Source of the DNA: Nannocystales bacterium
GTDB taxonomy: Bacteria; Myxococcota_A; Polyangia; Nannocystales; Nannocystaceae
Assembly (NCBI GenBank): GCA_050633305.1
Contig: JBOEGF010000014.1
Location: forward strand, 331,436 to 395,435
Reading direction: 5' to 3'
Length of the DNA stretch: 64,000 bases
The notes below the pieces were generated by a model that did no database searches, was not told where the DNA came from, and was given only the letters and a program-made list of their open reading frames with translations. This document shows positions 3,479 through 24,001 of this stretch, piece after piece (positions within the stretch are counted from its first letter, which is position 1; each line of letters starts with the position of its first letter). Both the position numbers and the translations under genes were made by a program.

Positions 3479-6022
3479 TCATTTCTTTCGACGCGTTCGG
3501 CGAGGCCGGGGAGCGGGTGGCTTGGCCTCCAGAGGGCGCTCGGGCCAGTCGTGCCTGGGGTAGCGCCTCCCCAGGACCTTTCGTTGGTCCGGGTAGTGCC
3601 GCTCCCAAAAACCGGCGAGGTCGGTCGTGACTTGGACGGCTCGCATGTTGGGGGCGAGCAAATGCAGGACCAGCGGGGTCCGCCCATCGCCGACCGTGGG
3701 GCCCTGCGCGCTGCCAAAGAAGTCCTGCAAACGCGACTCGGCCCAGGGATCGCGGTCGAGTTCGTAGTGCACACGGAGCCTCCGTCCCCCGGGGATCGAG
3801 ACGTGCGAAGGGGCGAGCCGTTCGAGTGCCGCCCGGGCCTCGGACGGGAGCATGTCGAGCGCGCGTCCCAAGACTCGCGCTTTACGAAGCTGGGCGAAGC
3901 TGCTGCGTCCCTCGCAGGCCGAACGCAGCATCTCCAGCATTCGTTGGTCGTCGACGATCGGGACACGTGGGTCGTGGCGATGCGCGAAGCGAGTCCGCGC
4001 CTCCAAAGCCCTCGCGGCGTCGCGGTCGTCGACGAAGGCTTCGAGGCCCTTGCCGCGCGCCGCCTCAAACAGGACCTCGGCCGCTTCGGGGGGGAGCTCG
4101 CGCAGGTGGGTGGTATCGACGACGAGCGCGCCCAGGCGAACCTCTTCGAGGGCGGTGACACGCTCCCGGGTGGCATCGAAGGTCACGACGCGGTGCTCTT
4201 CGAGGTCGTCGACGAACAGCTCGAGCAAACCCTCGAGTTCGACTCCAGCGGCGCTCCTCACGAGTACGGTTGGCTGCCCTCGAGGACCCTTTCGCTCCTC
4301 GATGGCCAGGGCGACGGCGAGCTCGGTGTCGCGGACCGCGGAATGCTCGCTCAAGGCGGCACTGCCTCCTTCGGCAAACACGATCTCGAGGCCACCGCCG
4401 GCGCCCTCCCGTAGTCGGCCGATGCGGTCGGGGAAGCCGGCCAACAGTGCGAGTCCCAAGTCATCTTCCTCGGCGGGGGTCGGCCGCGCCGAGTGTCCTT
4501 GTACTCGCATGGACTTGCGCAGCTGGGACTGGACTCGCTGCACCATCTTGCATGCACCGATGTCGAGTCCGAGTCGATGTGCCGCCGATGCGCCGTCGCG
4601 TTCGAACGCCCGTAGGTCTTCGGTTTCGACGATGACGTCGGAGTGCGCGGTTCGGATGTCGCGGCGGGCGTCACGTCGGTGAATCGCGCGTTCCGAGAGC
4701 AGCGCGACCGCGGTCGTCCCCAGCCCTTCAACGCCACGGGTCCGCGCCTCTTCGAGCACGCGCGCGAGCCGGGGGTGCACGGGATGGCGGAGCATGGAGG
4801 TGCCGACCTTGGTGAGCGAGCCGTCCTTCTTCACAGCGCCGAGGCGTTGCAGGAGGGTCTCTGCCGCGTCGACAGCCGCGTCGGGGGGCGGCTCGAACCA
4901 CCGCAGGTCTCTGGGTCCCGCCAACCCGGCCGCGCGTAGGTCCAGCATGGCTGCGGCGAGGTCGAGGCGGCACAGCTCCGGGGCGTCAAACGCGGGCCGA
5001 CGGTCGAAGTCGTGTTTGGAGTACAGCCGCAGGCAGCGTCCGGCCTGGACGCGACCGGCCCGGCCAGCGCGTTGCTCTGCGGACGCCCTGGAGATCTTGG
5101 CCAGCGTGAGCGTGGGGATGCCCGTCCACGGGTTGTGGCTGGGCTTGCGCGCAAGCCCGCTGTCGATCACTGCCACCACATGGTCGATCGTCACGGAGGT
5201 CTCGGCGACGTTCGTGCTGAGGATCAGCTTGGGGCGGTCGCCGGCTGACACGGCGCGATCCTGTTCGCGAGCCGGGAGGTCGCCGTGTAGCTGCACCAGT
5301 TCGAGTCCCAGATGCTGGGCTTGCCCGGCCAAGGTCTTGGCGCAGCCGCGGATCTCACGAGCGCCAGGAAGGAACACGAGGACGCTGCCGTTTAGACCGT
5401 CATCGGCGAGTTGCCGAAGCGCGACGCTGACTTGCCCGGGGAGCGGACGGTCGCTCGCCTTGGTGGCATGGGTCACGTCCACAGGGAAGGTGCGACCCTC
5501 GCAGTGCAACGCTTGGCAGTCGAGGTAACGCGCGATCGGTTCCGGTGCGAGCGTTGCCGACATGACGCCGATGCGCAGGTCGCTTCGTGTCTCGGAGAGA
5601 CGGCGTAGGAGGGCCAAGGCGACATCGGTGTGGATGTGTCGCTCGTGGAACTCGTCGAGGATGACCGTGGACACGCCTTGCAAACTCGGATCATCGCGAA
5701 GCCGCCGGAGCAGCAGTCCCTCGGTGACGAAGCGAATCCGGGTCTTCCTGCTGACCTTGCTGTCGAAGCGGACCTGATAGCCGCACGTCTCGCCGACGGG
5801 TTCGCCCAAGGTCGAGGCAACGCGAAGCGCGGCCATTCGGGCGGCGATCCTTCGCGGTTGTGCGACCAGAACCTCACCACCGTCGGTGATACCGGACTCG
5901 TGTAGCATCACCGGGACGCGGGTGGTCTTGCCGGCGCCAGGCTCGGCCTGAAGGACGAAGTGGCGGGTGCGTTCGAGACCCTCGAGGAGGGCCGCGCGAA
6001 TCGTCTCGATCGGAAGGGTCAT
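3479..6022 (-). CDS. hrpB: ATP-dependent RNA helicase HrpB
   Basis: AEPGAGKTT, QPRRIAAR, DEFHER, MSATL, STNVAETSVTI, QRAGRAGR and the HrpB C-terminal LLAPNMRAVQVTTDLAGFW...RYPRHDWPE. Confidence 0.96.
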   Translation of the reverse strand: MTLPIETIRAALLEGLERTRHFVLQAEPGAGKTTRVPVMLHESGITDGGEVLVAQPRRIAARMAALRVASTLGEPVGETCGYQVRFDSKVSRKTRIRFVTEGLLLRRLRDDPSLQGVSTVILDEFHERHIHTDVALALLRRLSETRSDLRIGVMSATLAPEPIARYLDCQALHCEGRTFPVDVTHATKASDRPLPGQVSVALRQLADDGLNGSVLVFLPGAREIRGCAKTLAGQAQHLGLELVQLHGDLPAREQDRAVSAGDRPKLILSTNVAETSVTIDHVVAVIDSGLARKPSHNPWTGIPTLTLAKISRASAEQRAGRAGRVQAGRCLRLYSKHDFDRRPAFDAPELCRLDLAAAMLDLRAAGLAGPRDLRWFEPPPDAAVDAAETLLQRLGAVKKDGSLTKVGTSMLRHPVHPRLARVLEEARTRGVEGLGTTAVALLSERAIHRRDARRDIRTAHSDVIVETEDLRAFERDGASAAHRLGLDIGACKMVQRVQSQLRKSMRVQGHSARPTPAEEDDLGLALLAGFPDRIGRLREGAGGGLEIVFAEGGSAALSEHSAVRDTELAVALAIEERKGPRGQPTVLVRSAAGVELEGLLELFVDDLEEHRVVTFDATRERVTALEEVRLGALVVDTTHLRELPPEAAEVLFEAARGKGLEAFVDDRDAARALEARTRFAHRHDPRVPIVDDQRMLEMLRSACEGRSSFAQLRKARVLGRALDMLPSEARAALERLAPSHVSIPGGRRLRVHYELDRDPWAESRLQDFFGSAQGPTVGDGRTPLVLHLLAPNMRAVQVTTDLAGFWERHYPDQRKVLGRRYPRHDWPERPLEAKPPAPRPRRTRRKK

Positions 6023-9677: not shown

Positions 9678-11737
9678 ACATCGCGGTCGCAGGCAATCCC
9701 AACGTCGGCAAGACAAGCCTGTTCAACGTCCTCACGGGCTCACGCCACAGCGTGGGCAACTATCCTGGGATGACGGTTGAGCGACGCGAGGGGGAACTCG
9801 CGAATCGCTGGGGCTCTGGAGAGCGTCGGTTTGTCGACCTCCCTGGGACGTACTCCCTGTCCGCCGTGTCCGAGGATGAGGCGGTCGCTTTTCGGTGCCT
9901 CCGGGGGCTGGACGCGGCGCCGCCGGATGCTGTCCTGCTGGTGCTCGACGGGACGAACCTCGCGCGAAACCTCTACTTCGCGCTGCAGGTCCTCGAACTC
10001 GAGCTGCCGACTGTTGTCGCCCTGAACATGGTCGACGCTGCCCGGGAGGCCGGCATCGCAGTGGAAGCGTCGGCGCTCGAGGCCGCGCTCGGCGTGAAGG
10101 TGGTCGAGACCAACGGCCGAACGGGGGATGGTGTCGATGCTCTGGTTCGCGCGTTTGATGATGTTCGAGCCGCGCCGGCGCGCGAGTACGTCGAGGAGAC
10201 CGAGCCCGCGGTTGGCCCCGCCCTCGCCAAGCTCGAAGACACCGGGGCTGGACGTGCACAGGCTCGTTGGCTGCTGTGCTGTGCGGCGGCGGGTACCGTG
10301 GAACTCACGGGCGCAACCGAAGAACTGAGGGCTGCACTCTCGGCGTTGGGTCAGGATGGTTGCTGGGCCGCGGCCCGGCGTCTTGTCGCGGCCCGGTACG
10401 CCACGGTCGATTCGATTCTGGGCACGCTCGGCGTCGACGAACGGATTCACGACGCACCGGCGATGAAAACATCCGAGCGCGTCGACGCCGTCCTGACCCA
10501 TCCGGTGTTGGGGTTGCTCGGCTTCGTGGCGACGATGGCCCTGGTCTTCGTCTCGATCTATTGGTGGGCCGACCCGTTGGTGGGCCTGATCGAGGATGGC
10601 TTCGGCGCGCTGAGTGAGGCCATCGCGGGGGCACTGGGCCCCGGCTTGCTCACCGATCTGATCACCGAAGGCCTCATCGCCGGGGTGGGCAACGTCTTGG
10701 TGTTCGTCCCGCAGATCGCGATGCTCTTCCTCTTCTTGGGGTTGCTCGAGGACTCCGGGTACCTCGCACGTGCTGCGTTCCTGCTCGACAAGTTGATGTC
10801 GAATCTCGGGCTCCACGGGCGTGCCTTTATCCCACTGCTCAGCGGCTACGCCTGCGCAATCCCGGCGATCATGGGAACGCGAACGATCTCCAGCTGGAAG
10901 GACCGGGTCGTCACCATGCTGATGATCCCGTACATGAGCTGCTCGGCTCGTCTGCCGATCTACGCGCTCGTGATCGGGGCCCTGTTCGTCAGCACCCCCG
11001 AGGAGGCCGTCATCAGTCCCTCGGTGGATCGCGGACTTCTTCTCCTCTCGATGTACCTGCTCTCGACCGTGTCGGCGTTGGCGGTCGGGTACCTCTACAA
11101 GCGCACGATCCTCGCCAGTCCGACCCCGCCATTGGTGCTGGAGCTTCCGCCGTACCGACTCCCACGGGTCGCCAACACGTTGGCCGTGGTGTGGGACAAG
11201 ACGCTCGCCTTCATCAAGGGGGCGGGCACGGTGATCCTGGCGTTCACGATCGTGCTCTGGGCGATCTTGTCCTTCCCTCGCGAAGCCACGGGGGCGGGCG
11301 GAGATGGGCCGACCCGAATCGAGGCCAGCTACGGCGGCCGAGTCGCCAAGACGTTCGAGCCTCTGGTGGAGCCCATCGGGCAGGATTGGCGCGTGGGCAT
11401 CGGCATCCTCGGGAGCTTCGCCGCACGGGAAGTCTTGGTGAGCACGTTAGGTCTTGCGTACGGGATGGAGGCCGATGATGACGACCCCGTCCAGCTTCGC
11501 GAGGCGATGCGCACCGACGTCGACGAGGCTGGGAAGCCGGTCCACACCAAGCTCAGCGGGTTGGCGCTGATGGTGTTCTTCGTCTACGCGTGCCAGTGCA
11601 TGTCCACCGTCGCGGTTGTGAAGCGAGAGACTCGGGGGTGGAAGTGGCCGCTGTTCATGCTCGTGTCGATGACCGTGATCGCGTACGCCGCCGCGCTGCT
11701 CGTGTTTCAAGTCGGGCGGCTGCTCGGATACGGGTAG
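9674..11737 (+). CDS. feoB: Ferrous iron transport protein B
   Basis: GNPNVGKTSLFN, GNYPGMTVE, DLPGTYSL, LNMVD, LEDSGYLAR and CSARLPIY; multiple TMs. Confidence 0.97.
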   Translation: MNIAVAGNPNVGKTSLFNVLTGSRHSVGNYPGMTVERREGELANRWGSGERRFVDLPGTYSLSAVSEDEAVAFRCLRGLDAAPPDAVLLVLDGTNLARNLYFALQVLELELPTVVALNMVDAAREAGIAVEASALEAALGVKVVETNGRTGDGVDALVRAFDDVRAAPAREYVEETEPAVGPALAKLEDTGAGRAQARWLLCCAAAGTVELTGATEELRAALSALGQDGCWAAARRLVAARYATVDSILGTLGVDERIHDAPAMKTSERVDAVLTHPVLGLLGFVATMALVFVSIYWWADPLVGLIEDGFGALSEAIAGALGPGLLTDLITEGLIAGVGNVLVFVPQIAMLFLFLGLLEDSGYLARAAFLLDKLMSNLGLHGRAFIPLLSGYACAIPAIMGTRTISSWKDRVVTMLMIPYMSCSARLPIYALVIGALFVSTPEEAVISPSVDRGLLLLSMYLLSTVSALAVGYLYKRTILASPTPPLVLELPPYRLPRVANTLAVVWDKTLAFIKGAGTVILAFTIVLWAILSFPREATGAGGDGPTRIEASYGGRVAKTFEPLVEPIGQDWRVGIGILGSFAAREVLVSTLGLAYGMEADDDDPVQLREAMRTDVDEAGKPVHTKLSGLALMVFFVYACQCMSTVAVVKRETRGWKWPLFMLVSMTVIAYAAALLVFQVGRLLGYG

Positions 11738-13864: not shown

Positions 13865-14022
13865 GCGGACCCCTTGGGTTTCCGCACCATAGCCCGCGGA
13901 GGGGACCGGTCAAGGAATTGAGAAAACGGTGTTTTTGCGGACCGCCAGCTTGGTGATCCGCACGACGCTTCTCCCAAAACTTGCACCCGGGCCTCGAACG
14001 ACCTCGCGTTACTGTGATCCTC

Positions 14023-14946
14023 GTGCTGGGCCGGCTGACCCCGATTCTCCTCCTTGTTGCAGTGGGGTGCGACACCCCAGATCGGGTTGAGGGGCTTGAA
14101 CGGGTCGCCGCAACCCTGGAAGAGGGGGTCATCGGTGCGACCAAGGACGCGCAGTCGCTCCGGGAGGACATCGAGCTCCTCGAGACACGCGCGACCGAGT
14201 TGGAGGCCGACCGTCGTGCACTCGAGGAGCGGGTCGAGTCGCTGGAGACCGCGCTTGCGCGTGTCGAGGCCAAGCTCGACGCTCCGGTTGCGCTCCCCCC
14301 TGCGGCTCCTGCCGAACCCACCGTCAGGCCCGGTCGGCCAGACCCTGCGGAGCGCTACCGGGTTCCCGTGGGCGACTCCGCGGCCAAGGGGCCCGCGGAT
14401 GCCAAGATCACGTTGGTGATGATCACGGACTTTCAGTGTCCGTTCTGCAAGCGGTCGCAGGCGACGATTCAGGCGCTGGAGCGTCGATATGGTTCGGACC
14501 TGCGAATCGTTGTGAAACACAACCCGCTCGCGTTTCACAACCGAGCCCGAGCCGCTGCGCTGGCCGCAGAGGCTGCCAACGAGCAGGGCAAGTTCTGGCC
14601 CTTGCACGACCTGCTCTACGAAAACAACCGGTCGCTCTCCGACGCAGACCTCCGACGCTGGGCAAAGAAGGCCGGGTGCGAGATGTCGAGATTTCGGGCA
14701 GACCAGAACAAGGCTTCGCTCGCCCGACGGGTCGACGACGACATCGCCCTTGCCCGAAAGGTGGGTGCTCGTGGAACGCCAGCGTTCTTCATCAACGGTC
14801 GGTTCCTCTCCGGGGCGCAACCGGAGTCGGCGTTTGCCAAGGTGATCGACGAGGAGATCGCCGAGGCCGACCGGCGGATCGCCGCTGGCACACCTCAGGA
14901 CTTCCTTTATGCGACGCTGATGAAGGGCGCGAAGCCGGGCGTTTGA
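14023..14946 (+). CDS. DsbA/thioredoxin-fold lipoprotein with N-terminal coiled coil
   Basis: Lipobox-like AVGC, heptad region, DFQCPFC, GTPAFFINGR and GAQP. Confidence 0.92.
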   Translation: MLGRLTPILLLVAVGCDTPDRVEGLERVAATLEEGVIGATKDAQSLREDIELLETRATELEADRRALEERVESLETALARVEAKLDAPVALPPAAPAEPTVRPGRPDPAERYRVPVGDSAAKGPADAKITLVMITDFQCPFCKRSQATIQALERRYGSDLRIVVKHNPLAFHNRARAAALAAEAANEQGKFWPLHDLLYENNRSLSDADLRRWAKKAGCEMSRFRADQNKASLARRVDDDIALARKVGARGTPAFFINGRFLSGAQPESAFAKVIDEEIAEADRRIAAGTPQDFLYATLMKGAKPGV

Positions 14947-14992
14947 TCCCCCCTCCCCCAGATCCCGCCGCAGATCCCGACCCAGGGTTGTT
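14945..14992. repeat. Left flank of RAYT: GATCCC micro-repeats plus inverted copy of the right-flank core motif
   Basis: GACCCAGGGTTGTT (14979-14992) has reverse complement AACAACCCTGGGTC, 12/14 identical to each of the three right-flank cores. GATCCC occurs at 14945, 14961 and 14973. Confidence 0.6.
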
Positions 14993-15182
14993 GACGGGCC
15001 GGGCGAGAGATTGGCGCGCCGGTGGGTGACAGGCAGCCTGACGAGGCGAGAAAACCGCGGCTCGGGGCGGAATCCGGGCTGGGGCACTGCGTCTGGCGGG
15101 CGATACCGGGCCACGTCCGGCGAGGAACCAGCGCCCGCGGACGAGCACTGGGCTCGCCTTCTGCGCCTGAAACCGCGAGGGC

Positions 15183-16091
15183 TCAGTTTTTTGCGACGTC
15201 GATGGCGACGCCGAAGCGCTGGACCATCAGGTATGTACCGAGAGGAAAGACGACATTTCGCTTCCCGCTTTCGAACAGCAAGCGTGCTTGCTCGTGTGCC
15301 TTGAGGAAGGCCTCGTTGCGCTGTAGCGCTTCGATGCGGGCCCACTTGTTCTTGCCCGCAACGGTCGGCCGAATGCCGCGCCGCGGAGCCCGGGTGCTGG
15401 GCGAGCTTTCGGTAGGCTGCCGACGAACACGCGCCATGCCGACGAAGGACCCGCCGTTGTTCCGAAGCTTGTCCGCAATCAAGTGGCTTCGCTCGCGGGC
15501 CCGGTCTCGAAGCTGCTCGCGAGCGTCGGCATCGCTAAGGCCGGGGTAGAGGGCTTCGGGTCGCACAAGGGTGAGGACCTCTTCTTCGAGTGTCTTGTCG
15601 CTGGACTCGTCAAAGAACCCGGTGGGCCGCCGAATGGTCTTCGACTGCCCGTAGTTCATGCTCCAGCTGCAGACGCCATCCCAGTACTCGGGAAGCTTGA
15701 CGAGGCCAGCGTCGACGACGTTGCACAGGGTGTAGAGGCACTCGTCTTCGATAGCGTCGTCGTCGACGAGGGTGACGGCGTTGTAGGAGCCCGGAGCAAA
15801 GAAGCTCTCCCAGCGGCCGAGGCTGGCGTTGACGCCTCGAGCGACGAACTGGTTGAGCTCGCGAAAGAACAGCGGCCGCTGCCCACGAACATCGGTGAAG
15901 ACGACGTGATAGTGGTTGCTCAGGACCTGGAATTCGTGGAGGAGAACCCCGGAGAGCCGGACCGCGCGGGCGAGGCAGTAGAGGAAGAGGTGGTCGGTGG
16001 TGGGGCTGGGTCGTAGGAAGAAGCGACGCTCACTGCAACGACGGGTCCCCATGACGACCTCTCCGGCCTTGACGAAGCGAGGGCGAGTCAT
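15183..16091 (-). mobile_element. HUH/Y1 REP-associated tyrosine transposase (RAYT-like, IS200 superfamily)
   Basis: TRRCSERRFFL, LHEFQVLSNHYHVV (HUH motif), RWESFF..GSY and YTLCNVVDAGLV (catalytic Tyr region); GGAGG 8 nt before the ATG at 16091. Confidence 0.9.
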
Positions 16092-16305
16092 CGGGATGGC
16101 CTCCACGTGCGTCCTGCCAAGCGCGTGCAGGAAATGCTGCATGCTCGGTCAAGGCAAGATGGGTTCGCGGGACACACCGGTGTCGGAGAGAGCAAGGAGT
16201 TGGCCAGTTTCGCCGCAGCGAAGAAACCGGGTGATTTCAGGCGTGCTGACGGGAGCGTTGGGCGAAGGCGGCCAGCGCTTGGGCCAGTGGGTGGGCCACT
16301 GGGCC

Positions 16306-16490
16306 AGCGGCGGTACCTCCGCTGAAACAACCCCGGGACTAGACAGCGGGACGGACAGCGGGACAGAGTCCGGACAGCGGGCGCGGGCGCCAGCGGCGGT
16401 AGCTCCGCAGAAATAACCCTGAGTCCGGACAGAGAGCGCGGACAGCGAGCGGCGGTAGCTCCGCAGGAATAACCCTGAGTCCGGAGAGCG
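16306..16490 (+). repeat. Three copies of a ~38-bp hairpin-forming REP-like repeat separated by GGACAG(CGG) micro-repeats
   Basis: AGCGGCGGTAGCTCCGCAG(A/G)AATAACCCTGAGTCCGGA at 16392-16429 and 16448-16485 (37/38 identical); degenerate copy at 16306-16340; partial tail at 16366-16377. Confidence 0.9.
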
Positions 16491-16500
16491 GCAAGGGTCG

Positions 16501-19284
16501 GTGTTGTTCACCACGTCCGAGGGGCGCGAGACGGCCTATGCGTTTCAACGTCAAGGGACGGACTACGAACGCTCGGTGACCTTCCCGGATGGGACGGTGA
16601 CGGCGAGTGTTCTGACGCCCGAGCAGGACCAGGTGACGTACGCGGACGGGACCGTCGTGACCACCCAGTGGGAGGCGAACGAACGTCTGGGCGCGAACAC
16701 GCGGGCTCCGGCATCGATTCGCACTCAGACGCCGGGTGCAGGGGACCGAGTGGTCACGTTCGTGCGCGAGTTCGAGCCGCGTTGTACGGTCTACACCGAG
16801 GACGCTGAGTGCGGGGATCCGCCTGTGGAGTTGCCCAATCTGCGCGCCGACCGGATCTCGGAGACCGCGCAGTCGGGCTCGGAGACCTGGACGCGAGTCT
16901 ACGACCGCGCCCACATTGACGGTGGAAGCTCGGTCGCCGCAACGATCGTGAGCACGGCTCCGTCTGGTCGCGTGACCACGACGACGCTCAACGGCGACGG
17001 CCAGGTGGCGTCGCTGCAGGTCGGCACGTTGGCACCGGTGATCTACAGCTACGATGCTCGTGGCAGGGTTTCGGGCATTTCGCAGACCGACGGATTGGAG
17101 GTTCGCGGGGTGACGTTCGGGTACCACGCAACCGAGGGGTGGCTGGAGACGGTCACGGATTCTGAGAACCGGACCACGACATACCAGCGCGATGAAGTCG
17201 GACGGGTTCTGCAGCAGATCGCTCCCAACACGGAGGTCGTCAGCTTCACCTACGATGAAGACGGAAATGTCGAGTCGGTGACGCCGCCGTCGCGCCCTGC
17301 GCACGACTTCTTCTACGACTCGGCCGACCGGCTTCGGGAGTACGCGCCGCCTGCGGTCAGCGGAGTCCCGGACCCCGAAACGCAATACACGTACACGCCG
17401 GACCACCAGCCGGCTGTCACGTCCCTACCGCAGTCCTCCGACATCACGTACACGCACGACGTCAGCACAGGCAAGCTGAGCACGATCGCAACGCCCGAAG
17501 CGCTCTACACGTTTGTCCATGACGACGACGGTGGAGTGGACGATACGGGCCAGCTGCAGTCGGCTTCGATCGACCCCGACGCGATGGGAATGGCGACGAA
17601 CACGCTGACCTACACCTACGACGGTGACCTGCTCACCGGCGAGGCGATGACCGGTGACGTGACCGGCTCGGTGAGCTGGGGCTACGACAGCCAGCGGCGG
17701 CTGGACTCGGAGACGGCGGCCGGGGACACTGTGGCGTATGGCTACGACAGCCAGGGGCGGATGACCTCGATGGGTGCCATGACCGCGACGTACGTGCCGA
17801 CGACTGGCCAGCTGGACACGACCACGGTGAGTGGGGTGTTGGCGACGTACAGCTACGATCCATTCGGCGACTTGGCGGGGATCCTCTACGAGGACGGAGC
17901 TACGGCGGTCTACGAGGTCACGTACACGCGGGACAGCTACGGCCGCATCGAGACCAAGACGGAGACCCACAGCGGCTCGACGAGCCTGCGTTGCTACGAA
18001 TACGACGACGCAGATCGGTTGGCGGACGTCTATGACGCCGCGGACTCGATGGGCTGCACCGGGACGAACTTGGAGTCGTACAGCTACGATTCCAACGGCA
18101 ACCGGAGCACGGTGACGAATAGCGCGGGCACGATCGGCGCAGGGGGAGTGGTGACGGACAACCAGGACCGCCTGCTGACGCATGGCGACTGGACGTACAC
18201 GTACAACGATGATGGGCAGATGGATTCGCGGACCGATACGTCCAGCGGGGACGTCTGGCTGTACACGTACGATGCTGTCGGCAACCTGCTGGAGGTGGAC
18301 CCGCCGGGGACAACCGCCGGCACCATCACGTACATCATCGATGCGCGGAACAGGCGTGTGGGCAGGGAGGTGGACGGAGTGGAGCAGCATTTCCTGTACG
18401 GAGACCAGCTCAACCCGGTCGCCGAACTCGACGGGGCAGGCGCGTTGGTCTCGCGGTTCGTGTACGGGGCCAGTGACCACGTGCCGGACTACATGGTTCG
18501 CGGCGGGACGACGTACCGGTTCCTGACGGACCAGAATGGCAACGTGGTCGGCGTGTTCAACACAACGACGAACACGATGGCGCAGACCCGGGAGTACGAT
18601 GCGTACGGGCGGGTTGTCGGAGGCGCGACGACGGAGGCCGGGTTCTCGCAGCCGTTTGGGTTCGCTGGCGGGTTGTACGACGAGGATACGGGGTTGGTGC
18701 GGTTCGGGGCGCGGGATTATCGGCCGGAGGTTGGGAGTTGGGCGGCGAAGGACCCGCTCCGGTTCGGTGGTGGCGCCGCATCTTTGATGCAGTACTGCCT
18801 AGGAGACCCCTTGAACTTCGTCGACCCGCATGGCCAAGCTCCGCTATTCCCATTGCCTGCAGGCGGTGCATCCCCTTTGTCCGGGGCGGGGCACATGTTG
18901 ATAGTCGGAAATACTACCTGGGGCGGGCTTCAAACGATTCTTGGAAGTATAGCGTCAATTGGCGGAGAATATGACCTTGAGCATGCACCGGACGGTGTTG
19001 TGATGGTCCGTGGCGGGTGGATCAATGCCTTCTTGCCCCCGCGAAGCGCAATGACGCTCGGGCCTTTCATCTTCTTGAACGAGTGTGATCCGAACGGCCT
19101 TGAGGGCTACTATGGGGAGGTCCCGCTCTGGGAACACGAACGGGGGCATACGGCGCAGTCTGCTTTGATGGGCCCTGCGTATATCCCGGCGGGGTTGCTC
19201 AACTACTTGTTCTATCTCCAAACCTATAAGGATGGAAGTCCTCTAGATCGGAACGCAAATGACTGGGCGAATAATCTCAGGTAG
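16501..19284 (+). CDS. 5'-truncated Rhs/YD-repeat protein with C-terminal HExxH putative toxin domain
   Basis: Many YD repeats; core QPFGFAGGLYD..TGLVRFGARDY...W..KDP; PLNFVDPHG ends at 18834; tip carries HERGH (19135-19149). Starts inside repeats with no signal or N-terminal domain. Confidence 0.92.
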   Translation: MLFTTSEGRETAYAFQRQGTDYERSVTFPDGTVTASVLTPEQDQVTYADGTVVTTQWEANERLGANTRAPASIRTQTPGAGDRVVTFVREFEPRCTVYTEDAECGDPPVELPNLRADRISETAQSGSETWTRVYDRAHIDGGSSVAATIVSTAPSGRVTTTTLNGDGQVASLQVGTLAPVIYSYDARGRVSGISQTDGLEVRGVTFGYHATEGWLETVTDSENRTTTYQRDEVGRVLQQIAPNTEVVSFTYDEDGNVESVTPPSRPAHDFFYDSADRLREYAPPAVSGVPDPETQYTYTPDHQPAVTSLPQSSDITYTHDVSTGKLSTIATPEALYTFVHDDDGGVDDTGQLQSASIDPDAMGMATNTLTYTYDGDLLTGEAMTGDVTGSVSWGYDSQRRLDSETAAGDTVAYGYDSQGRMTSMGAMTATYVPTTGQLDTTTVSGVLATYSYDPFGDLAGILYEDGATAVYEVTYTRDSYGRIETKTETHSGSTSLRCYEYDDADRLADVYDAADSMGCTGTNLESYSYDSNGNRSTVTNSAGTIGAGGVVTDNQDRLLTHGDWTYTYNDDGQMDSRTDTSSGDVWLYTYDAVGNLLEVDPPGTTAGTITYIIDARNRRVGREVDGVEQHFLYGDQLNPVAELDGAGALVSRFVYGASDHVPDYMVRGGTTYRFLTDQNGNVVGVFNTTTNTMAQTREYDAYGRVVGGATTEAGFSQPFGFAGGLYDEDTGLVRFGARDYRPEVGSWAAKDPLRFGGGAASLMQYCLGDPLNFVDPHGQAPLFPLPAGGASPLSGAGHMLIVGNTTWGGLQTILGSIASIGGEYDLEHAPDGVVMVRGGWINAFLPPRSAMTLGPFIFLNECDPNGLEGYYGEVPLWEHERGHTAQSALMGPAYIPAGLLNYLFYLQTYKDGSPLDRNANDWANNLR

Positions 19285-19294
19285 CCGGAATTCT

Positions 19295-19807
19295 ATGCTG
19301 CAGGTCCTGCTCGTTTCGGGCGTTGTGGGATGTAGCACCCCTCTCGACGCCGACCCGTCCGAAGGGGTGTTCGCAATTTCAGACTGCCGGCCGGACGCTC
19401 TCGAGCTTGGCGGTGTTGTTTGGGCTCGACCACGTGGGTTTGAGGTCGCGGATGTGGAGCGGTGGATGGCCTGGTGTCAGCAGCGACGCAAGGATGGGAG
19501 TGTGATCGTGGTTCACACGGAGGTCGACCACATTCTGGTCTACCGGGACGCGGAACTGAGGTCAGTCAGGTCCAGCTATTCTATTCAAGGCGCGGGTACC
19601 AGGCGATGGTCCGGGGTTGGAGATGATGGCCTGGCAGAGGGGATCTTGAAGATCTACTTCGGAGGAGTCTCAGGCATGTTCTACAACGGGGAGTGGGTCG
19701 GCTACGTCGCAGAGAAACAGGGGGCGTTGCGAGCTGGGCGACGTCCTCGGAGTACGACTTCGCATCGGGCCGTTGACACTCGGTCGGGGCCAACGGCGCA
19801 AGATTGA
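19295..19807 (+). CDS. Putative lipoprotein, candidate immunity protein of the Rhs tip
   Basis: ATG 10 nt after the Rhs stop; short hydrophobic leader ending in VVGC. Immunity role is inferred from position only. Confidence 0.55.
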   Translation: MLQVLLVSGVVGCSTPLDADPSEGVFAISDCRPDALELGGVVWARPRGFEVADVERWMAWCQQRRKDGSVIVVHTEVDHILVYRDAELRSVRSSYSIQGAGTRRWSGVGDDGLAEGILKIYFGGVSGMFYNGEWVGYVAEKQGALRAGRRPRSTTSHRAVDTRSGPTAQD

Positions 19808-20229
19808 TTCGAAGGTGTGTCCAGTCCCCGGCGCGGTCGTCGCCGGACCTTTCGAGCTGGAGGTTCGTTGTTAGCGGGCCGATTTGATGTCGTAGTCGGT
19901 TTCAAGTGTGACGTCGTATGCTCCGTGGCGGCTCGTACACTGACGTAGTGGAAACCGCCGCTGCGGTGCTGGAATGAAGGCCTCTCCCTCAGTGCGGGGG
20001 GAGGCGCTGAGCACCCTCGGAGAGCCCATGCGTGGGGAGGGGGAAGGAGCGTGGGCGAGGATTGTCGGTGTTGGGTGTTGGCCTTGGCTCAGAGTGTTCG
20101 ACGGCATCTTCGATCAAACCCGCGATGCTATTGCCGTACGCGACCGGTGGCCCGGTGACCCAGCCGCCGTCTTCGCTTCGACCTGTCGTGTGCATGTGTT
20201 ATTGAATGATGATGATGATGATTGGCAGG

Positions 20230-21645
20230 ATGTTTAGGTCGTCGATTCTGCCGACCTCCCGGGCCCTGATGACGACAGTCTTCATGTTCGCCGCCTGCAA
20301 CGGCGAAGAAGGAAGCGGTGATGGGGGCTCATCAGACACCGATGAGCCGTTTTCAGACCCGGATCCGGCGGGGTTGACGTGTAACGAACCTGGGGAAGGG
20401 GGGTGGGAGATTAGATGCGGGGTAGATGGAGTGAACGCCACCTATGGAGGCGAGATCCTCTTTCTTGCGAGTGGCCCCGCTTTTGGGGAGCCTCTGTGGC
20501 TCTTCGATGTGTTCCCCGGAGAGTCTGAGTGTTGTGGTGGGTGTCCTACGCTTCAAACCGTGCAGGAGAGTTGCCTTGCGAGCTGCAAAGAACAGCTGTG
20601 TAACATCCTGAAAACTCACCACGATGCCACGGCCTCCTCAGATGGGTTTTGTGGTGTTCCGAAGTTCAATATGGACGCGTGTCTGTCTTCGGGCTCCTAT
20701 ATCCAGCCGAGAAGGCGGGCGGTGGTAGGACTTTCAGGTTGTCAAATGACAAACGATGTGGCCGTCAACGCTCTGTGCGGGCCGGTCGAGGACGTTGTGC
20801 GGGATGAAACGTTTTTTCTGGGCGGCTCTTGTCTACCTAGCGAAGGATTACCTCCCTCTTGCGGCACCCCCGAGGCATCTGAGGTCGGGCGGACTGTGGT
20901 CGGGGGGCTCACTACCGACACTGCCACCGCGGGTGCGGGCTCCTTTGCTTCGATCTCCTGGACCTTCGGTGGCGAGAACGGGTTCTCGCGGACCGCGGAT
21001 GTCGATGTCGATGTCGCCTACGCCGACATGGAGTGTGGGGCCGAGCAGTGCTTCGCCCTCTCGCAGTTCGAGGCGTCCATTCCGACGAACTCGGTGGAGG
21101 GTCTTACAATCGAGAATGCACACTTCTACCTTTACAAGGCGAACGATGTTGTCCTCGGGCGGAAGGGTGACTTCAGGTACGAGGCGGGTGATGTCGAGGC
21201 GGTTCTCAGTGCGGACGTGAATGGGGTGCGGATCTCGGCCGTTGGCGCGTCGACACGCGCGGCGGTTGGTCACGTGTCTCCCTCGACGGGCGTCTTGTCT
21301 CTCCGCGAGCTGGAGTTCCAGTACACGTCCAAGGTCTTCGCGGCCACGCTCATGCTGTCAGTCGAGGGGGCATACACATCGAGGCGGCCGGTTGCGGACA
21401 TTGCGCTCGTCTCGGCGCCTGCGTCCTGCGCGGATCCTGTGGCGTTCACCGCCGCGAGTCGTGACTACGACGGCGATCCGTTGACCCATCATTGGGAGGT
21501 CGCGGGCGGCGGACAGCTGGGAGAGGGAGAGCTCTTCGAGGTTGCACTTTCTGAAGGAGAGCACCGAATTGTGCTTCGTAGCTCTGACGCAACGAGTCGG
21601 CACGGCTACACTTCGTTGGTCTATCGTCGCCGCTGCCAGCCATGA
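20230..21645 (+). CDS. Cys-rich lipoprotein with C-terminal PKD/Ig-like domain
   Basis: Lipobox FAAC, many Cys, and VAFTAASRDYDGDPLTHHW...LSEGEHRIVL. Confidence 0.75.
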   Translation: MFRSSILPTSRALMTTVFMFAACNGEEGSGDGGSSDTDEPFSDPDPAGLTCNEPGEGGWEIRCGVDGVNATYGGEILFLASGPAFGEPLWLFDVFPGESECCGGCPTLQTVQESCLASCKEQLCNILKTHHDATASSDGFCGVPKFNMDACLSSGSYIQPRRRAVVGLSGCQMTNDVAVNALCGPVEDVVRDETFFLGGSCLPSEGLPPSCGTPEASEVGRTVVGGLTTDTATAGAGSFASISWTFGGENGFSRTADVDVDVAYADMECGAEQCFALSQFEASIPTNSVEGLTIENAHFYLYKANDVVLGRKGDFRYEAGDVEAVLSADVNGVRISAVGASTRAAVGHVSPSTGVLSLRELEFQYTSKVFAATLMLSVEGAYTSRRPVADIALVSAPASCADPVAFTAASRDYDGDPLTHHWEVAGGGQLGEGELFEVALSEGEHRIVLRSSDATSRHGYTSLVYRRRCQP

Positions 21646-22796
21646 TGACCGACCGCGCGTTCTCGACATCTTGCGCTCATCCGCCGGGCTCCATCGCGTC
21701 GGCGGCCCGGCGCGGTCTGTTTGGGATCACGCTTTGCGGAATCCTCGGGGCGGGGTGCTCCGAGGACTCGCCCTGGGTCGAGACTCGGCACGCCCGGATC
21801 CAGGGAGAGCATGGGGTGTGCGCGGGCCTTGTGGCGTACGTCGACGAACGAATCGAGGTCACGGCGGACTGGTTCGAGCTCGAGCCTGGTCCGAAGATCG
21901 ACATCTACCTCGGCCAGAGCTACGTCGACGAGCAGCAGGAGAACTACGACTATCGGATTGGTGGAGTTGCGTACCGCCGAGACGGAGAGGTGAGTGTGTA
22001 CGCAAGAGGCGATACTCTCGGTCACGAAGTCGTTCACGCGGTTCGGTTTTCGAACGGACTGCTGCTGCCCAGGCTGATCGAGGAAGGGCTTGCGCTGCTC
22101 TACGACGGCGGAGAGTTCCACGCGAGCGGAGGCGGGGTTTCCTACAGGATCCCAGAGGGGGCCACGCTGCCCGACGATCCGCACTCCGCGTCGGTAGGGG
22201 TTGCAGCGACGTTTTCGGGGTGGTTGCACGAGACGTTGCCGCGTGAGGACTTTCTCCGCTTGGTCAACGATCCCGAGCTCAACCGCGGATACGGAGCGGC
22301 CAGCAACTGGGAGCGCATCGAAGCGGCCACAGGGATGAGCAAGGAGGTCCTGGAGGAGCGCTGGGCAAGCGAGGCGCAGCAGCACTACTCCGCGGTCCCA
22401 CGTTGCCGCCCGGAACGGACACACCGCCTCGAGGTCGGGGAACCGCTACTCATCGAGGACACAGTATCCTGCAGTGACTCGCCCACGACGTTCGGCCCCT
22501 ACCTCGTCTCGGACGCTCTCGTAGCCACGACGCAGCGGTGGCACTGCTTTCCGTTGGACGAACCCACGTCGGTGCGGATCACGGCATCGGGCCCGTCAGG
22601 GAGCGACCTCCTGTTCTACCGTGTCTACGACTCATGCCTGACGTCCTCTCCGCTCACCGAGGAGACCGCCGCCAAACAGATCGAACTTGGAACAACGGCC
22701 GAGTTCTCGTTCGGTGACTGCGAGTGGGTTGCGCGAGTTCGCAGCGATCCCGATACCGTCGGTGATGTCTCGATCACGATCGTCGCGGTGGAGTAG
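21642..22796 (+). CDS. Lipoprotein with gluzincin-like metallopeptidase motif
   Basis: Lipobox GAGC and GHEVVHAV...LIEEGLALLY; ATGA overlap with the upstream gene. Confidence 0.78.
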   Translation: MMTDRAFSTSCAHPPGSIASAARRGLFGITLCGILGAGCSEDSPWVETRHARIQGEHGVCAGLVAYVDERIEVTADWFELEPGPKIDIYLGQSYVDEQQENYDYRIGGVAYRRDGEVSVYARGDTLGHEVVHAVRFSNGLLLPRLIEEGLALLYDGGEFHASGGGVSYRIPEGATLPDDPHSASVGVAATFSGWLHETLPREDFLRLVNDPELNRGYGAASNWERIEAATGMSKEVLEERWASEAQQHYSAVPRCRPERTHRLEVGEPLLIEDTVSCSDSPTTFGPYLVSDALVATTQRWHCFPLDEPTSVRITASGPSGSDLLFYRVYDSCLTSSPLTEETAAKQIELGTTAEFSFGDCEWVARVRSDPDTVGDVSITIVAVE

Positions 22797-22908
22797 CGGC
22801 AGTGCCCTTCGCCGCGAAGGCCCTCAAGGGTCCGGCGGGTCGAGACCGACTTGGCGGCGCGTTTGCGCGAGCGGAGTCGGGTAAGGTGCGCGGCACTTGA
22901 GGGGAACG

Positions 22909-23129
22909 ATGAGACGGAGCTCGAGAGAGAAGGCCATCGCTGTGTGCACGGCCAAGATCGCAAAAAAGGCGAGGGCGTCGGGCTTTCGTTCTACGCGTTC
23001 TTCGCCAACAAGAACGACGACCCCGAGGCGCTGATGGAGGTCGCGCAGTGGTGGATCTCGACGCACCAGCTCGACCACTTCGAGAAGGCGGTGAAGATTC
23101 GAGACCTCCTGCTGTCGGAAGGGTCGTAG
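22909..23129 (+). CDS. Small protein (DUF6500-like from recall) split by a -1 frameshift at A_AAA_AAG
   Basis: GAGGGG then ATG 22909 gives MRRSSREKAIAVCTAKIAKK; the -1 frame continues GEGVGLSFYAFFANKNDDPEALMEVAQWWISTHQLDHFEKAVKI to TAG 23129. Confidence 0.65.
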
Positions 23130-23182
23130 GACTGTCGTCGGGTGGCCCGAGCTGGATCTACCCAAGACGCACCGCCGGTCCT

Positions 23183-23569
23183 ATGAAGAAACTCGGGATG
23201 CGGTGGATCTGGACGAGTTTCGGGGTGGTCTGTGTGGTTCTGGGTTCGGTTGGCGTGATCCTGCCGCTGTTGCCCACGACGCCGTTCCTGTTGCTCGCTG
23301 CCTACGCGTTCGGCAGGTCATCGCCCCGGATGCACGCGTGGATGATGAATCACCGGGTGTTTGGGCCGAGTCTGAGGCAGTGGTCCGAGTACGGTGCGGT
23401 CGGCCGCAAGGCAAAGGTGGCCGCGGTTTCGACGATGGTGGCGATGTTCGTCGCGGGGCTGATCCTCGGCGTCTCTGCCACGGTGGTCACGATTCAGGCG
23501 GTGGTGTTCGTCTTGTGTAGCCTCTACATCCTCACGCGACCGTCCCCTCCAAGCGAAGCCAGAGGGTGA
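23183..23569 (+). CDS. YbaN/DUF454 family membrane protein
   Basis: LGSVGVILPLLPTTPFLLLAAYAFGRSSPR...HRVFGP...W. Confidence 0.92.
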   Translation: MKKLGMRWIWTSFGVVCVVLGSVGVILPLLPTTPFLLLAAYAFGRSSPRMHAWMMNHRVFGPSLRQWSEYGAVGRKAKVAAVSTMVAMFVAGLILGVSATVVTIQAVVFVLCSLYILTRPSPPSEARG

Positions 23570-23614
23570 GGGCTGCGAGCGGCGGCGGCGGGTGGCGATG
23601 TGGGGCAGGGTCGC

Positions 23615-24001
23615 TCAGGGTGCGAGCCAGTCGCCGCTGGGGACGAGCTGCAAGTCGCTGACGTCACGCGCGAACTCGTAGACCCACGTGGGGATCGACG
23701 AGCCCGCAGCGTCGACGGTGATCTCGCGGCGTACGAACTCGTGCGGGGCGGGGTCCTCGGCGCTGCACCCTTCGTAGAAATCCAGGACGGGCCAGGCTGC
23801 GGCCGCCACGGAGGTCCACAGCTCGCCGACGACCCATCCGGCGTGCTGGTCGAGGACCAGGCCGGGGTACCCATCGACGACGTACAAGCGGCCGCGGACC
23901 CGAGCGGGGCCGGCGGGTGTGCCGTGCTCACGGAGGACGTCGTACATCTCGTGCGCGGCACCCTCGCGCAGGGAACCGTAGACGAACAGCGCGTCACTCA
24001 T
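23615..24001 (-). CDS. Gamma-glutamylcyclotransferase (AIG2-like) family protein
   Basis: LFVYGSLR, YPGLV, VVGEL, LDFYEG and WVY. Confidence 0.9.
   Translation of the reverse strand: MSDALFVYGSLREGAAHEMYDVLREHGTPAGPARVRGRLYVVDGYPGLVLDQHAGWVVGELWTSVAAAAWPVLDFYEGCSAEDPAPHEFVRREITVDAAGSSIPTWVYEFARDVSDLQLVPSGDWLAP

Follow-up and report, generated by a model that had tools for sequence, protein, structure and literature searches.

The closest described systems to the element studied here are the TIRtrons with their TIRYT transposases (Di Nocera 2013, PMC3733652) and subclasses 2.1 and 2.3 of the TnpA-Y1 transposases (Quentin 2018, PMC6006769); TIRtrons are probably the same as subclass 2.1. These and the other published systems are compared below as far as the available portions of the cited papers describe them. 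Transposases associated with repetitive extragenic palindromes (REPs), the RAYTs, are typically single copy and do not duplicate (PMC5581495). In this study, a 64,000-nucleotide stretch of Nannocystales bacterium contig JBOEGF010000014.1 (the window; contig C14 of our assembly G000, 11.0 Mb, 92% complete) was analysed. It carries a Y1 transposase gene and a truncated ("headless") Rhs gene with short direct repeats between them, and had been predicted from the sequence to hold a RAYT that captures or shuffles Rhs core-tip-immunity cassettes in the manner of an integron. We found that the transposase gene belongs to a multi-copy element with terminal inverted repeats, that repeated copies of the element ends occur throughout the family, and that the Rhs neighbour is an incidental orphan. 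The claim of a dedicated Rhs shuffler is not warranted.

A multi-copy Y1 element with inverted ends

The element is about 1.37 kb long with 16-bp inverted ends. Close copies share the DNA from about 14976 to 16342, diverge beyond it and have unrelated flanks. The inverted 16-mer ACAACCCYGGGWCNRG was found at each end, the right end pairing with 14976-14991, and over 62 elements inverted alignments of the ends outscored direct ones (p=0.0008). Four full close copies (80-84% amino acid identity) were detected in G000 together with contig-end fragments (79-94%). The wider family has 22 matches in G000 and is represented in 23 of 40 relatives, G000 included; a single-protein search of genome contigs returned one locus, and tblastn against plasmids returned no matches. 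The end motif has 27 matches in the 11 Mb, against a chance expectation of 3. Because about 23 of the 27 sit at element ends, there is no dispersed REP family in G000, and the notion of a RAYT that spreads REPs is not borne out. The repeats exceed chance: a 13-mer gave five matches against a shuffle mean of 1.5, a number reached in none of 100 shuffles.

A hairpin (15139-15158) lies 25-65 nt past the transposase stop codon in family members. Over 24 sequences its paired cells reached 83%, compared with 33-47% in slid controls; RNAalifold itself gave just 3 pairs, and the 7-pair count is that of our own structure derived from the same sequences. The hairpin and the YTGGTT that follows it are kept even among Y1 subfamilies that are only about 30% alike, and YTGGTK was found at 44 of 103 3' ends compared with 10 of 103 5' ends. 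We suggest this conserved 3' hairpin as a candidate TnpA binding site. No target-site duplications were seen by eye in the four complete G000 copies. Flanking genes, oriented with a simple hexamer model trained on G000, are read in the direction of the element at 59 ends and in the opposite direction at 29 (43 unclear), about 2:1 in favour of gene 3' ends, while random positions gave 150:155. An automatic stop-codon-distance test was not used; among 14 close ends it reported a converging stop within 30 nt at only 2, and it overlooked one or more cases that were visible by eye.

In an alignment of 21 sequences, residues N76-H77-Y-H79 and Y137 of the transposase (P0001) are invariant; N141 was also noted. 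The P0001 model (predicted local distance difference test score 88.8) has E. coli TnpA-REP (4ER8) as its best solved-structure match (Foldseek E 1.7e-6, Z 15.1, root-mean-square deviation 3.0, 157 aligned), and the HuH motif and catalytic Tyr in a TnpA fold place it in the TnpA-Y1 (HUH/Y1) superfamily. Pfam Y1_Tnp was reached by 5 of the 21 family members, P0001 not among them, and a PDB sequence search with the transposase gave only matches of E 0.04-0.1, to IS200/REP transposases. The prediction that a RAYT diverges from the repeat block was thus right in that a Y1 gene with the TnpA-REP fold diverges from it, but the name RAYT does not hold: P0001 scored 17.9 bits against NCBIfam REP_Tyr_transpos, where the cut-off is 80, the gene is multi-copy and not single, and the genome has no abundant family of REP hairpins.

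TIRtron/2.1 and 2.3 come closest among known systems, and membership in either is not established. As in TIRtron/2.1 (PMC3733652, PMC6006769), a RAYT-like Y1 gene lies within terminal inverted repeats, present on both its sides, and not within REPs; the NHYH motif is found, and a core of about 110 aa (E28-N141, about 114 aa, in P0001) precedes a C-terminal tail, here of about 150 aa and without a Pfam match. Unlike TIRtron/2.1 as described in the available text, no Pfam helix-turn-helix match was found in the tail (Bac_DnaA_C, HTH_23 and HTH_28 gave no Pfam match in the 21 members; the tail was not searched by fold on its own), and there are several copies per genome at 80-84%. The end motif is ACAACCCYGGGWC and not GGGGWSAS; GGGG[AT][CG]A[CG] is a majority feature of subclass 2.1, to which the ends found here, reading GGGTCGG, GGGACTAG or GAGTCCGG, bear a partial likeness. 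Subclass 2.3 (PMC6006769) shares the length of about 320 aa, NHYH, WE, multiple copies at about 75-85% identity and the absence of REPs, but it has 10- and 55-aa core insertions and YVDLNP, none of which is present in P0001, and is described from different taxa. P0001 reads YTLCNV (Y---NV), and the family consensus is Y---NP, the class 2 motif; the Y---Q motif and short core-only protein of IS200/IS605 were not found.

Stutter at the element ends

The direct repeats lie at 16303-16346, 16389-16432 and 16445-16488. Of the 44 positions, 3 differ between copies 2 and 3 and 8 between copies 1 and 2. Copy 1 is the right inverted end of the element itself, so the repeats do not form a separate block: they are nested re-duplications ("stutter") of the element's own end. 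Most close ends in G000 carry nested copies of the terminus (C24, C26, C50, C38 and C10), as does C13 from another subfamily. Scored as at least 28 bases in exact repeats of at least 14 nt within 600 nt, stutter was detected at 33/91 5' ends and 49/94 3' ends (82/185 in all), compared with 13/157 and 11/85 windows further out and 73/2000 random windows, a control rate of 4-13% of windows. A second set gave 24/33 ends against 2/32 controls.

The nested copies span the terminal 10-225 bases, with a median period of 60 nt and a maximum, within the parser's limit, of 225. By eye they have a common outer end and a variable inner start, clearly so in C24, C26, C50, C13, L041 and L042. Among 83 stutter junctions, 43 contain 1-8 unmatched bases, and 27 of the 40 others have 0-2 nt of microhomology; 12 of the 83 are blunt without microhomology. 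No dinucleotide dominates at the 145 jump-back points, CG being highest at 1.5-fold and CT standing at 0.7-fold. Larger duplications were also observed. At L199 the duplicated unit comprises an element and about 370 bp of its flank (99.8%) and is accompanied by an end copy of 220 bp, and at L200 elements alike at 97% stand head to tail. Extreme stutter, with mosaic end copies of 200-400 bp that can be mistaken for CRISPR-like or low-complexity arrays, was seen at L034, L110, L231, L223 and L208.

IS91/ISCR insertion sequences (IS) use a HUH enzyme and one-ended rolling-circle transposition, and give tandem copies and element-plus-flank duplications. The element described here differs from them in its single catalytic Tyr, symmetric inverted ends and new junctions at both ends. 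IS1272, of the IS1182 family, works by DDE transposase chemistry, unrelated to Y1. It also lacks target-site duplications and shows tandem duplications of the sequence at the side of one end, whereas here the duplications are nested, affect both ends and are family-wide (PMC5678879). The E. coli TnpA-REP/REPtron-BIME (bacterial interspersed mosaic element) system resembles ours in the fold of its transposase (4ER8) and in local tandem amplification of short flanking units; in contrast to it, the element itself is multi-copy here, and there are neither dispersed REPs nor a C|T junction rule (PMC3333891). Nested end re-duplications are not mentioned for TIRtron/2.1 in the available portions of the two papers (PMC3733652, PMC6006769). 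In the searched literature, whose scope falls short of most subscription journals and ISfinder, no description was found of nested end re-duplication in Y1 elements or of a RAYT-Rhs system.

The Rhs orphan and its island

The Rhs open reading frame (ORF) at 16501-19284 encodes 927 aa, with RHS_repeat, TEN_YD-shell and the Rhs core (residues 699-779) and no N-terminal family match. It is indeed headless at the repeats, as the original prediction had it: its GTG at 16501 lies 14 nt from the end of the 38-bp repeat at 16486, and an in-frame TAG (16456-16458) stands within the repeat. The alignment begins at about the first residue of the frame and covers residues ~1496-2256 of a G020 frame of 2409 aa; it begins at the same point in four other long relatives. 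Since homology to full-length relatives starts at about residue 1, the break maps at the repeats, no more than about 15 nt from the last end motif; since it starts at about residue 1496 of the 2409-aa relative, about 1,480 N-terminal residues are missing. These were not found in G000 by tblastn with five long relatives, the family being present only at C14, and they do not lie across the element, where dsbA is found.

The tip (18841-19281) contains HExxH. Among 59 other genomes, a related tip was found in G008 alone, at the end of a 2818-aa frame (40% over 70 aa). The 170-aa ORF that follows (19295-19807) has no family match and no homolog in the fetched loci, and is a candidate immunity gene. 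Tip and candidate immunity gene scored below 0.9 against the Atlas and so provide leads only, the nearest named cluster being eCIS_core (0.82, 29% of members). The layout of a core fragment up to the DPxG motif, a variable tip and a small downstream gene is that of the Rhs orphan modules of the C-terminal displacement model (Jackson 2009, PMC2935791). Unlike those modules as described in the available text, the one found here has about 780 core residues and a mobile-element end at its break, and no intact parent of the same clade was found in the 92%-complete G000. This remnant probably represents a core-tip-immunity module that is orphaned and silent. Within the genus, every close relative of this teneurin-like Rhs that was found is a short frame or a fragment (G001:C45, G001:C642, G002:C36, G002:C12 and G006:C67, one of them at a contig end); long frames of the family were encountered mainly in other genera. 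In G002:C36, a remnant of the same Y1 subfamily is fused after an 86%-identical fragment of the same Rhs family.

In G000 and all fetched loci, the motif of the original prediction forms 20 exact clusters, or 97 when one mismatch is allowed; in either count a single cluster, that of this locus, lies against an Rhs gene. At 5' ends not picked for Rhs, an Rhs gene was present within 1 kb at 0/68 and 0/15. In five genomes of the genus (49 Rhs cores; G001 and G005 left out), an Rhs core is found no further than 5 kb away for 11 of 89 Y1 matches, compared with 10 of 119 matches of other IS (rve, IS66, IstB and IS110; Fisher p=0.36), both about ten times the 1% background. At family level such pairs involved 2/85 and 1/83 Y1 matches, counted by eye in fragmented assemblies with no other-IS control. 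Orphan Rhs arrays were detected in two genomes in which the search for Y1 gave no match, G007 with 5 cores and G015 with 12; these orphans start at similar residues (1467-1530 of a 2521-aa parent). A headless length of about 1,000 aa was considered as a Y1 signature and rejected, as it recurs in genomes without a Y1 match. With the motif rarely at Rhs, no Y1 enrichment and Y1-free orphan arrays, integron-like capture or shuffling is unsupported; the locus holds a single module and no array. The view of the repeats as a recombination junction survives in part: the Rhs breakpoint lies at them, but they are not Rhs-specific sites because the same nested repeats occur at about half of family ends.

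A Y1 5' end facing a headless Rhs gene does recur in three lineages (G002/G004:C9, G003:C108 and G004:C12). The overlapping contigs C13 and C22 of G002 (3408 bp, 99.85%) give the order parent Rhs, tip, immunity gene, Y1, headless core (95% to the parent), second tip, immunity gene and Y1. The G002 junction is found again in G004:C9, next to other tips. G003:C108 keeps the gene order but differs in both tips and breakpoint, and in G004:C12 a headless Rhs lies between two 96%-identical elements and begins where element homology ends. The break falls within about 25 nt of an end-like motif in G003:C108 only; in G002 and G004:C9 about 190 nt and an unrelated palindrome intervene. These cases involve a distant Y1 subfamily (about 30% identical, with different ends) and other Rhs families. 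The palindrome is near-perfect and about 26 bp long (L081, ~10270-10300; L083, ~4740-4780). We did not count an 8-bp triplication at the G002 junction as end stutter, since it lies in Rhs sequence and is absent from G004. At the ends of G002 C13 and C22 (L082, L081) and at L083 and L084, the tip-immunity DNA varies from genome to genome while the Rhs core and the Y1 3' end on either side are conserved; the Y1 element could serve as a downstream homology arm for tip replacement. Integrase-like fragments were seen close to two other Y1-Rhs loci (L080, L200).

Convergent Y1 elements lie behind Rhs genes in G019 (two), G041, L128 and G000 C22/C33, in part because the elements favour gene 3' ends. 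In G019:C229 the Y1 3' end lies within the YD-repeat region, the state expected of a simple insertion. Frames that begin at an element end without a start codon are not confined to Rhs: one lies between the C24 copies and another at C40. At G000:C24:172600-176300, two direct Y1 copies flank a frame that starts at one 3' end and stops 5 nt before the 5' end of the other; we take this frame to be sigma-factor-like.

The repeats, element and Rhs gene are part of an island of about 8.7 kb (14947 to ~23614, right boundary approximate) at a convergent gene junction (Table 1). It is called an island because dsbA runs straight into the gene at 23615-24001 in G003, G004 and G005, which have no insert; G001, G002 and G006 carry different DNA at this junction (14946/14947 and 23614; L189-L194), a hot spot for insertions. 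The second remnant (19869-19966), presumably comparable to a Tn7/IS21 end, has eight copies in 4 of 10 genomes searched (L234-L240 and the window). Six of the eight follow a same-strand Rhs core at a distance of up to about 5 kb, and these cores belong to different Rhs families; Y1 ends are less closely tied to Rhs. The start codon of the 479-aa cysteine-rich ORF is ambiguous owing to a run of GAT/ATG triplets at 20199-20225; it has one paralog, on C2. No Rfam matches were found over 14000-24000, and a sigma-70 promoter scan found nothing.

Table 1. Features of the island and its left border, in window coordinates
Feature	Position	Strand	Remarks
dsbA-like thioredoxin gene	13981..14946	+	Pfam DSBA; left boundary of the island; outermost repeat of the element abuts its TGA stop
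Left-end stutter, GGGATC-type unit, three copies	14947..14975	-	
Left (3') terminal inverted repeat, ACAACCCTGGGTCGGG read outward	14976..14991	-	common to all close copies
7-bp hairpin, then YTGGTT	15139..15158	-	putative TnpA binding site
Y1/HUH transposase, 319 aa	15183..16142	-	likely start M18, ~16091, where homologs begin in the alignment
Right (5') terminal inverted repeat, variant 1	16327..16342	+	
Right-end stutter: short units and two 44-nt copies of a divergent end variant	16343..16488	+	the repeats of the original prediction
Headless teneurin-like Rhs	16489..19284	+	YD shell and core to residue ~781, then HExxH tip 18841-19281
Candidate immunity lipoprotein	19295..19807	+	position and lipobox-like N-terminus only
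Second transposon-end-like remnant, unrelated to the Y1 element	19869..19966	+	TGTT start, three spaced TGAYGTCGTA-type sites
Rest of island: ORFs of 479, 384, 92 and 173 aa	20206..23614	+	

Origin of the stutter and of the orphan

We consider it fairly probable that the Rhs gene lost its head either through a deletion mediated by an element end or when two elements recombined, the surrounding island being rich in mobile DNA. In the mechanism that we propose, TnpA would make nicks in single-stranded DNA close to each element end; the 3' end set free in this way would extend, slip back to a variable inner point with little or no microhomology, re-extend several times and then join the target. 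Stutter and the absence of target-site duplications would both follow because the end was re-primed further back before joining, and joining still further back would give tandem duplications of the whole element or of the element plus flank. Here, one element would lie at the dsbA stop, and the 5' end of a second variant would have become attached within the Rhs gene, the intervening DNA being lost. Adjacent deletions and duplications are a common outcome of IS activity (PMC11708052), and the 8/44 difference between repeats 1 and 2 fits two elements. Several points weigh against this account. The outer tail is ACAG in end variant 1 and in end variant 2 alike, and a single diverged end fits equally well. 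The automatic test for a fixed outer and variable inner point gave only 35 against 22 (p=0.096), and the unmatched junction bases may be short templated pieces below the parser's 11-nt limit. Of 13 close pairs of Y1 and Rhs (not independent), 11 have the two on opposite strands, an arrangement that a model of flank capture predicts likewise. No clean pair of empty and filled sites was found to fix the cut points, the copies carry specific tails of 5-10 nt, and the activity of the transposase is predicted.

In a flank-capture model, resembling ISCR or Helitron transposition, an element convergent behind an Rhs immunity gene would excise or copy a stretch that starts at its own 5' end, takes in its 3' end and continues into the flank; the product, a circle of partial core, tip, immunity gene and element, would have inserted at dsbA here and recombined into resident Rhs cores elsewhere. 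The element would then be a general mobiliser of flanks, with Rhs one cargo of several. The order of genes in G002, G004:C9 and G003:C108, the Rhs between elements in G004:C12, the convergent Y1 elements behind Rhs, the remnant in G002:C36 and the element-plus-flank duplication at L199 all agree with this, and the displacement model needs such circles and, in the available text, leaves their origin open (PMC2935791). Yet Y1 is no more enriched near Rhs than other IS, only the G003:C108 break is close to an end-like motif, the G007 and G015 orphans have similar starts with no Y1 match found, and a search of the island revealed neither a second element nor a remnant of a 3' end; we therefore regard flank capture as unlikely. 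For the stutter step alone, with the same Rhs history, precise cutting and rejoining by TnpA (nick-primed amplification, as for BIMEs) competes with slippage. The TnpA-REP fold of P0001 and the blunt junctions (12/83) speak for it, and TnpA-REP assembles tandem units in vitro, model B of that study giving direct duplications between two nicks (PMC3333891). The lack of a favoured dinucleotide at the jump-back points and the extra bases at about half of the junctions speak against it, leaving it a minority possibility to be taken seriously.

The suggestion that the repeats are dedicated sites at which a RAYT shuffles Rhs cassettes draws on the Rhs break at the repeats and on the similar geometry in three other lineages. 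It is largely refuted by the motif counts (including 0/83 at other unselected 5' ends), the single module without an array and the generic nature of the repeats, the other cases belonging to the distant Y1 subfamily with different ends, and we give it next to no credence. An assembly artefact at the junction or repeats is also very improbable. Many copies of the element do break contigs, and no independent reads spanned the junction. However, stutter is present in many separately assembled genomes and in metagenome contigs, including a 10-contig genome; the repeat units differ by point changes, end variant 2 occurs nowhere else in G000, and dsbA and the 23615 gene flank the island in the order seen in relatives. 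The sole read run found (X1, share 0.15) represents a near-identical strain at a depth of 2-5. Cover at 93% or above is absent over almost all of 16000-22680 with no bridging contig, a hole that proves nothing. One X1 contig (465 nt, three other letters) spans dsbA and the left end with a left stutter 15 bases shorter, a single low-depth observation.

REP-less TnpA-Y1 subclasses have no established mechanism according to the available text of Quentin 2018 (PMC6006769). The REP-less Y1 genes studied here behave as mobile elements with defined ends, about half of which record how they were joined. The exact substrates (the ends and the conserved hairpin) and the spectrum of junctions are now available for the process to be reproduced in vitro. 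The end repeats can mislead scans into calling cassettes or CRISPR-like arrays. Should the larger duplications arise by the same mechanism, the elements would be a route to the duplication of gene fragments and to orphan polymorphic-toxin modules. Y1 elements, by duplicating themselves and flanking DNA, may occasionally seed Rhs orphan modules, although the odds are against it. A broader proposal, speculative and rather improbable at present, is that Y1 elements with terminal inverted repeats form a widespread class with a transposition route not recognised before, in which an end is re-joined time and again back on its own strand, this one process giving rise to stutter of 10-200 nt, whole-element tandems, element-plus-flank duplications and, where the element lies behind an immunity gene, Rhs core-tip-immunity duplicates or circles. 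If this is true, end re-joining behind Rhs immunity genes would supply the duplicates or circles on which the C-terminal displacement model depends without accounting for them.

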